Shown in pieces: positions 21,900-22,193 of a DNA stretch of 64,000 nucleotides. The DNA is from Nannocystis bainbridge (lineage in GTDB: Bacteria > Myxococcota_A > Polyangia > Nannocystales > Nannocystaceae), in the NCBI RefSeq assembly GCF_028368995.1, contig NZ_JAQNDL010000002.1, forward strand, positions 1,216,001-1,280,000, in the 5' to 3' direction. The translations under genes were made by a program, and so were the position numbers. Under the pieces are notes generated by a model, which did no database searches, was not told where the DNA came from, and was given only the letters and a program-made list of their open reading frames with translations. Within the stretch, counting starts at the first letter, position 1; every line of letters starts with the position of its first letter.

Positions 21900-22193
21900 G
21901 ACAGGGTCCGAGGGACATGTCCATGCGGACATGTTGCTTCGGACATGGACTATGGGCCATGTCGTGAAGGACATGGCTCATACGACATGAGCCAAAGTCC
22001 ATGGCGTGAAGAGAATGGTCTAATAGACATGGGCTTAGAGACATGGCTGTAGAACCATTTTCCATACGACATGCGCTGAGATCCATTGCGTAAAGAACAT
22101 GGCAAAAACGACATGCGCGATAGGACATGTTTGAATAAACATAGCTGATAAGACATGTTTATAGGAACATGTCGAATGGGTCATGTGAATCTG
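21900..22193. repeat. Large 14-bp-phased array: 21 units of conserved (GA)CAT(G) plus unique 8-nt spacers
   Basis: Exact 14-bp register over 294 bp. CAT at unit positions 3-5 in 19/21 units and exact GACATG in 11/21. All spacers differ. AT-rich relative to the window. Confidence 0.95.

Follow-up and report, generated by a model that had tools for sequence, protein, structure and literature searches.

The window analysed here is the whole 64,000-nt stretch of the Nannocystis bainbridge genome. The feature under study lies between two of its genes, ybjQ and thrC, where the following elements succeed one another:

21504..21887, plus strand: ybjQ, the upstream gene (Pfam YbjQ_1, E 4.8e-38)
21900..22193, plus strand: array of 21 units in strict 14-nt register with the core (G)ACATG, the longest array of a genome-wide family
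22194..22429, plus strand: repeat-free, GC-rich stretch (0.73–0.86) between the array and the thrC start
22430..23788, plus strand: thrC, the downstream threonine synthase gene (PALP domain)

The stop codon of ybjQ precedes the array by 13 nt, and thrC starts 236 nt beyond the end of the array. ybjQ closes a series of genes read in one direction (hflX, an ORF and ybjQ), and the product of thrC is 96% identical to a Nannocystis exedens DSM 71 record. Directly before the GTG of thrC, at 22405–22429, is a TGGCAT-N5-..GC sequence that is conserved in two genomes (the second copy is at L001 2980–3002) and that we take, from its sequence, to resemble a sigma-54 −24/−12 element. If this element is real, the annotated start of thrC or its leader would need revision.

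Re-cutting the array every 14 nt from 21900 reproduced exactly the 21 units and conserved CATG core described in an initial annotation of this DNA, together with its count of CAT at unit positions 3–5 (19/21 units), its all-unique 8-nt spacers (21/21 differ) and its unbroken phase, with no indel in 294 nt. Counted singly, positions 3–6 are C in 20/21, A in 21/21, T in 20/21 and G in 18/21 units; exact CATG is found in 16/21, the deviating units being 0, 8, 11, 13 and 17. Information content is 1.3–2.0 bits at these four positions and at most 0.8 bits elsewhere in the unit. The array is atypical in that the 3′ half of its core is poorly kept, a G following CATG in 10/21 units. Autocorrelation, for which peaks at 14, 28 and 42 nt had been predicted, gave z = 9.7, 10.5, 10.4 and 8.7 at lags of 14, 28, 42 and 56 relative to 1000 shuffles, with |z| ≤ 3.2 at all other lags up to 59. 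The reported left-to-right rise in AT was also recovered, GC dropping from 0.55 to 0.41 along the array, between flanks of 0.70–0.86. Tandem Repeats Finder reports only 2.8 copies within the array (22009–22046). The annotation thus described the array itself correctly and missed two things: that there are about 950 such arrays in the genome, and that there is partial complementarity among the ‘unique’ spacers, which gives rise to hairpins.

The array is non-coding, since 14 is not a multiple of 3, its GC content (0.41–0.55) is far below that of genes (>0.7) and the open frames crossing it are artefactual. These are minus-strand ORFs of 111, 68 and 62 aa that run across parts of the array (21793–22223, all three frames being open), and they are a product of repeat composition on a stop-poor strand, not genes. 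A translated ORF, held out in the initial annotation as a possible source of the 14-nt pattern, therefore falls away, as does a coding repeat. Nor do the arrays belong to a catalogued RNA family. Rfam 15 covariance models gave no match at E ≤ 1 in 21000–23000 and none at the arrays over the whole window, where the sole family above its gathering score is 6S/SsrS RNA (RF00013; 457–640, minus strand; 52.5 bits, E 1.3e-7). CRISPR arrays have repeats of about 23–50 nt with spacers of similar length and lie near cas genes; a 14-nt unit with a variable part of 4–8 nt, present at some 950 loci, is not one of them.

Searches of the host genome (11.05 Mb, 71.5% GC) placed the array in a large family. 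Chains of at least three CATG words number 954 genome-wide at period 14 and 1–22 at neighbouring periods from 8 to 20; with ACATG as the core, the figures are 700 at period 14 and 0–1 at periods 11–17. The unit consensus is GGACATG[T/C]CC (GGACATGYCC) followed by four nearly random, AT-enriched bases (NNNN). Of the spacings between successive cores, 2131 are of 14 nt, 16 of 13 nt and 20 of 15 nt; those of 28 and 42 nt number 518 and 153, respectively. Most arrays have 3–6 units, with no preference for even numbers across the genome, and the second longest has 12, making the 21-unit array of the window the largest. CATG chains of period 21 are also fairly numerous (113, compared with 1–22 at other non-14 periods); these may be coding repeats of seven codons or offsets of 1.5 units. 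The densest cluster among the 46 arrays listed is a set of five adjacent arrays in differing phases within 330 nt, at C3:1501549–1501878.

The phased pattern recurs at five further places in the window, where shuffled sequence gives none. The window contains four other family members:

4966..5021, minus strand: 4 units, after the stop of the minus-strand gene 5062–5427
28975..29058, no strand assigned: 6 units, between convergent genes, with a stop codon 15 nt away
31980..32049, minus strand: 5 units, ‘genic’ according to our crude gene finder
53076..53117, plus strand: 3 units, 197 nt past a stop at 52880

The array at 31980..32049 probably follows the stop of gene 32327–33958, the start of the neighbouring gene having been over-extended. 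In the convergent region after thrC, a single hairpin with the family core (ATGTCC-TCAA-GGACAT; 24101–24116, plus strand) suggests that minimal, one-hairpin members exist below our threshold of three cores.

The family is specific to the genus Nannocystis. The three-core pattern was found in 9/10 other genomes of the genus, with 47–105 matches in each of five nearly complete genomes of 12–13 Mb (G001, G003, G005, G007 and G010) and 0–22 in each of five drafts of 4.5–9.1 Mb; over the large-genome clade as a whole, matches number 47–191. The pattern was absent from the 20 nearest-relative genomes that belong to other genera and from four additional genomes of the same family. No array was present in 400 further genomes of the phylum, five of which had one or two matches (four perfect short tandem repeats and one single match).

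Over-representation of a short word invites comparison with DNA uptake sequences. The word GACATGTC occurs 2237 times in the genome against about 74 expected from base composition, and the core is palindromic and sits at gene ends, as would a recognition sequence parked as inverted pairs in terminators. Inverted pairs of DUS/USS words act as terminators in Neisseria and Haemophilus, and the arrays share with them the terminator-like hairpins formed after genes by paired copies. DUS/USS words work singly in uptake, however, without a fixed array register, whereas the Nannocystis cores occur almost only in phased arrays, with a strictness of spacing foreign to uptake sequences, and have no link to uptake here. 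We consider an uptake function very improbable.

We then asked where the arrays lie relative to genes. Genes were called with our own crude GC3-based finder (coding fraction 0.81–0.83), which reproduces the local genes and replaced a stricter earlier version (coding fraction 0.62–0.67). By these calls, 487 of the 954 arrays are in convergent, 323 in tandem and 35 in divergent regions, and 109 are ‘genic’, at least one of the last being due to an over-extended start. At least two cores 14 nt apart are present in 560/1349 convergent intergenic regions (42%), compared with 455/3664 tandem (12%) and 79/1437 divergent regions (5%). In tandem regions the array begins a median of 25 nt past the upstream stop, with the next start 225 nt away; in convergent regions the median distances to the two stops are 23 and 26 nt. 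Hence, being close to stops, far from starts and much more frequent in convergent than in divergent regions, the arrays have the distribution of a 3′-end element. Their orientation relative to genes shows no preference (123 opposite, 100 same, 100 neutral). A centromere-like site, one of the functions first proposed for the array, does not fit the number and placement of some 950 loci, and the same is true of an origin.

The arrays are not canonical intrinsic terminators because no T-tract follows them, the T fraction after arrays being about 0.10–0.15; hairpins are present and the U-tract is absent. None of the nine terminator-like sites returned by a generic scan of 14000–32000 fell inside the array.

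Since the core is self-complementary, neighbouring units can pair as a stem of 10 bp closed by a 4-nt loop. Pairing of the cores alone could be a by-product of their consensus, and covariation was therefore measured against a column-permuted expectation. Watson–Crick covariation is in excess across one inter-core interval (z 3.3, 4.2, −0.5 and 4.4) and at the positions flanking a two-core hairpin, where it reaches into the spacers (z 5.1, 5.0, 1.7, 7.6 and 4.7). Positions on either side of a single core show no excess (z −9.5 to 1.4), nor do controls 3–4 intervals apart (|z| < 1.7). The odds ratios are modest, at 1.3–1.4. Hence, the spacers are not independent of one another, as hairpin-type covariation extends into them.

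Folding of the 21-unit array predicts the following hairpins in the transcript:

21906..21944, plus strand: units 0–2, 17 pairs and a 4-nt loop, the spacer of unit 0 pairing with that of unit 2
21951..21982, plus strand: units 3–5, 13 pairs and a 6-nt loop
22011..22062, plus strand: longer hairpin pairing unit 8 with unit 11, units 9–10 lying inside
22124..22173, plus strand: nested hairpin in which 16/19 and 17/18 are the paired units (coordinates read by hand from the dot-bracket string)

In these predicted hairpins, spacers and non-consensus bases of paired units compensate each other, as at 21951..21982, where this is true of the bases beside the two cores. The plus-strand RNA of the array folds at −129.6 kcal/mol, compared with −86 ± 4.7 for shuffles (z −9.2), and the minus-strand RNA at −104 kcal/mol, compared with −74.5 ± 4.5 (z −6.5). 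Most of this energy comes from the column consensus, as permuting unit order or columns still leaves −106 to −107. On the plus strand, 9/300 unit and 8/300 column permutations fold as well as the real sequence, making complementarity due to neighbour order marginal; on the minus strand the real order is indistinguishable (33/300 and 115/300, respectively). The five folds of the other four window arrays include four with z of −2.5 to −4.5 and one, 53070–53123, that is no better than shuffles (z −1.45). An alternation of loop and linker registers is discernible only as a faint trend.

Whether pairing occurs in RNA or in DNA was approached through the mismatches tolerated in stems. On the sense strand of tandem regions, 959 of the stem mismatches are of the G·U type and 586 of the A·C type, and loop positions show no G+T skew. 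Contigs C1–C5 of the host genome (G000) have a strong, uniform replication GC skew (about ±0.05–0.10, with a sign change near C3:1.5 Mb), whereas genes show little strand bias, and none that follows the skew, so that effects of transcription and replication can be separated. In convergent, divergent and ‘genic’ arrays the leading-strand G·U/A·C stem ratio is 1.7–2.1. As the loop G>C skew of 1.4–1.7 matches this replication-strand asymmetry, we ascribe the asymmetry to mutation bias rather than to single-stranded DNA hairpins. Among tandem arrays the ratio is 3.38 where gene and replication run the same way (co-directional) and 0.84 where they meet head-on. These values imply that replication contributes a factor of about 2 and the sense strand a further factor of about 1.7; the latter is absent from loops. 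Array by array, the leading-strand excess is 3.01 for 145 co-directional and 0.36 for 178 head-on cases (Mann–Whitney p = 2e-13). The array of the window, taken alone, has a G·U to A·C count of just 6 to 5. If selection acts on an RNA structure, wobble pairs should be tolerated on the transcribed strand, as seen here. Placement after stops, covariation between neighbouring units and transcription-dependent stem mismatches thus all point to a single-stranded structure at the level of the transcript.

These results bear directly on the mechanism originally suggested for the array, a protein polymerising along double-stranded DNA. In such a model, a monomer or dimer would bind each duplex core and polymerise, the 14-bp step rotating successive units by about 120°, and the polymer could serve at gene ends as a roadblock, in supercoil management or as a nucleoid-associated factor. 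Short head-to-tail units at a fixed step are known from MetJ metboxes, omega heptads and ParR–parC iterons, where phased units on duplex DNA, at one or a few loci beside the genes they control, are bound cooperatively by protein; these are the nearest analogues of the idea. The extreme strictness of spacing (2131 core pairs at 14 nt, with only 16 and 20 at 13 and 15 nt), the same core at every locus and the lack of overall orientation preference relative to genes (123/100/100) are all compatible with it. The window array, moreover, keeps the GACATG half only, as expected of an asymmetric half-site, and the convergent gene ends where arrays sit are where positive supercoils pile up. Yet it is neighbouring units that covary, not the halves of a core, and a duplex site has no transcribed strand on which G·U mismatches could be in excess at stems only. 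The Nannocystis arrays also differ from the three analogues in lying after stop codons at about 950 loci and in covarying as single strands do. We therefore consider binding to duplex DNA unlikely, although the strict spacing does hint at a binding factor that reads phase.

To examine how the arrays evolve, we compared a 788-kb portion of G010 with its collinear counterpart in G000. Several arrays are wholly different or absent between the two genomes. In alignable units (111 and 103), identity is 0.85–0.99 for CATG, 0.71–0.82 for the rest of the core and 0.57–0.69 for spacers; the flanks of 41/87 and 28/60 arrays could not be mapped, and ortholog alignments are subject to ascertainment and alignment bias, but the gap between core and spacer exceeds the factor of two that ascertainment alone could produce. 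Core-to-core distance in 76 kept pairs was unchanged in 62, changed by a multiple of 14 in eight and otherwise changed in six. Raw gap lists from global alignment of the two genomes show no enrichment of multiples of 14. The initial annotation had inferred selection on core plus spacing, and this is borne out by CATG identity of 85–99% against 57–69% for spacers and by phase being kept in 70/76 core pairs. Indels that break the register, which it had weighed against such selection, do occur at orthologous loci (6/76 pairs), but the remaining 70 pairs stay in phase and the core is kept above the spacers. A near-identical metagenome contig has four differences within the array, none of them in CATG, and no gaps; the contigs, from four runs, are short and of low depth, leave 22014–22064 uncovered and contain no joints or indels.

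At C3:1346802–1346865 an array carries a tandem duplication of 63 bp (4.5 units) that is present in G000 and not in G010. This shows one route by which arrays grow and phase breaks originate.

The ybjQ–thrC interval has an array in all six close genomes. In five of the six it begins just past the ybjQ stop; in G003 the distance is about 100 nt. It has 21 units in G000, 10 in G010, about 14 in G005, 8 plus 2 after a 1-nt shift in G001, 10 plus 4 after a shift in G007, and about 11 plus further shifted units in G003; apart from the core, unit sequences differ largely between genomes. Alignment of this interval across relatives, proposed at the outset, thus finds a long array kept in 6/6 genomes and a phase that has shifted in three of them (G001, G007 and G003). 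Because it is kept in all six, the long array is old; its perfect 21-unit register is specific to G000. No array was seen near thrC in four more distant Nannocystis drafts, where the gene may or may not have the same neighbours. Period-15 repeats upstream of thrC in two other Polyangia metagenome-assembled genomes (L005 2495–2640 and L003 2328–2400) are coding peptide repeats of the GDAGQADAG... type and thus no counterparts of the array.

Array growth of this kind raises the possibility that the family is a functionless mutational by-product, enlarged by 14-nt slippage and homogenised by quasi-palindrome (template-switch) correction. Whole-unit changes (8/14 distance changes are multiples of 14) and the observed tandem duplication fit this account, and complementarity between neighbours is the expected outcome of template switching. 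It leaves unexplained, however, why arrays lie 23–26 nt past stops with an eightfold difference between convergent and divergent regions, why G·U mismatches depend on transcription, why the same core recurs at 950 loci and why the long ybjQ–thrC array has been retained in 6/6 close genomes. We regard this account as quite unlikely.

The initial annotation knew of no described element with this layout, and we found none in listings and abstracts of the literature on Nannocystis and myxobacterial repeats, palindromes and the core word. The closest known kinds are the REP/BIME elements and REPINs of enterobacteria and pseudomonads (PMC3337134, PMC3116915) and the TRIT motif of mycobacteria. Like REP/REPIN sequences, the arrays are short, extragenic, imperfect palindromes that number in the hundreds, belong to one lineage and are often clustered. 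Both kinds can fold into hairpins as RNA or as single-stranded DNA, and both favour 3′ ends and convergent regions. REPs are palindromes of about 35 nt in doublets with variable linkers, existing as populations of near-identical copies and accompanied by a RAYT (IS200/IS605-type Y1) transposase. The Nannocystis palindrome, in contrast, is 10 nt long and recurs in the same orientation at a step of exactly 14 nt, with up to 21 copies in an array, and each array has spacers of its own. Only 20 pairs among the 954 arrays share a 28-mer, most of them at contig ends or within one locus. Searching G000 (90.5% complete) with PF01797 returned no match, the control having matched 6/14 reference genomes. 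Membership of the REP/REPIN–RAYT group is therefore rejected, there being neither a RAYT nor a population of copies of a master sequence.

Some arrays at the ends of contigs C1, C2 and C5 in G000 are identical together with their flanks, for example C2:838 with C5:711215 and C5:716602, and C1:4.52–4.53 Mb with C2:3.02–3.03 Mb. These copies probably represent a repeated region or assembly overlap.

The same comparison bears on whether the arrays are selfish, that is, REPIN-like non-autonomous mobile DNA that spread through single-stranded DNA hairpins and survived at harmless 3′ and convergent sites. Some 950 dispersed extragenic palindromic copies confined to one genus are what this would produce, as are differences in presence and size at orthologous sites (the C3:1346802 duplication; the absences in G010) and a stem mismatch spectrum with replication-strand asymmetry. 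That asymmetry equals the loop G>C skew, however, and is explained by mutation bias; cores are conserved while spacers drift; and the lack of a Y1/RAYT transposase, along with the near-absence of shared copies, leaves no sign of a recently copied population and makes copy-paste mobility unlikely. As an explanation of the family as a whole, we give selfish DNA little credence.

TRIT, the ‘Tuberculosis Rho-independent terminator’ motif, resembles the arrays in several respects. It is described as restricted to Mycobacterium and as a single, longer hairpin present in 147 copies centred near −8 relative to the stop codon, for which a reading factor was proposed (PMC3152330). Both are sequence-conserved hairpins at gene termini, each in one genus and in a high-GC genome poor in U-tract terminators, and both are palindromic and so bidirectional. 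TRIT as described there is not an array of short phased units and its sequence is unrelated to the array core; with core and architecture differing and Nannocystis as the host, the arrays are set apart from it by the same description. They are a variant of the known 3′-end palindromic repeat families, a seemingly undescribed cousin of REP and TRIT.

We conclude, with moderate confidence, that the arrays are stacked RNA hairpins at the 3′ ends of genes, a genus-specific family acting as terminators, stabilisers or insulators. Each unit consists of the 10-nt near-palindrome GGACATGYCC and four variable bases, and in this mechanism neighbouring units would pair in the transcript, folding the array into a stack of short stem–loops just past the stop codon of the upstream gene. 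Such stacks may define or protect mRNA 3′ ends, whether by termination without a U-tract, by blocking 3′ exonucleases or by insulating against read-through, and in convergent regions one array could serve both genes bidirectionally. At the locus described here, the array would end the hflX–orf–ybjQ transcription unit and separate it from thrC. Family membership, placement at 3′ ends, hairpin-type covariation, the transcription-dependent G·U signature and the conservation of core and phase are observed; a role in termination or stabilisation is an inference.

Hairpin thermodynamics leaves the near-absence of 13- and 15-nt spacings unexplained. An identical core everywhere and a near-invariant 14-nt step exceed what hairpin stability needs, which suggests that a sequence-specific, trans-acting factor reads the duplex or its register. 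A more specific prediction, which we offer tentatively and think less probable than not by a wide measure, is a Nannocystis factor that recognises the 10-bp palindromic duplex and the 14-nt step, assembling cooperatively on RNA or extruded DNA at gene ends. If this were true, termination or insulation would be programmed by sequence and dependent on register, unit number would set its strength and the 21-unit ybjQ–thrC array would be the strongest site.

How transcripts end in high-GC bacteria without U-tract terminators is an open question on which myxobacteria have barely been studied. Nannocystis appears to mark many of its gene ends with one word in strict 14-nt register, 42% of convergent regions among them. 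The arrays are useful as landmarks for annotating operon ends in the genus and are possible insulator parts for myxobacterial engineering. The persistence of a REP-like family without a RAYT transposase or identical copies is relevant to the question of whether repeats of this type are selfish or have been domesticated. Finally, about 950 natural variants in unit number, spacer and orientation constitute a testable system for what a non-canonical terminator or 3′-end protector requires, and the same variants could help to establish whether the arrays are read by a dedicated factor.
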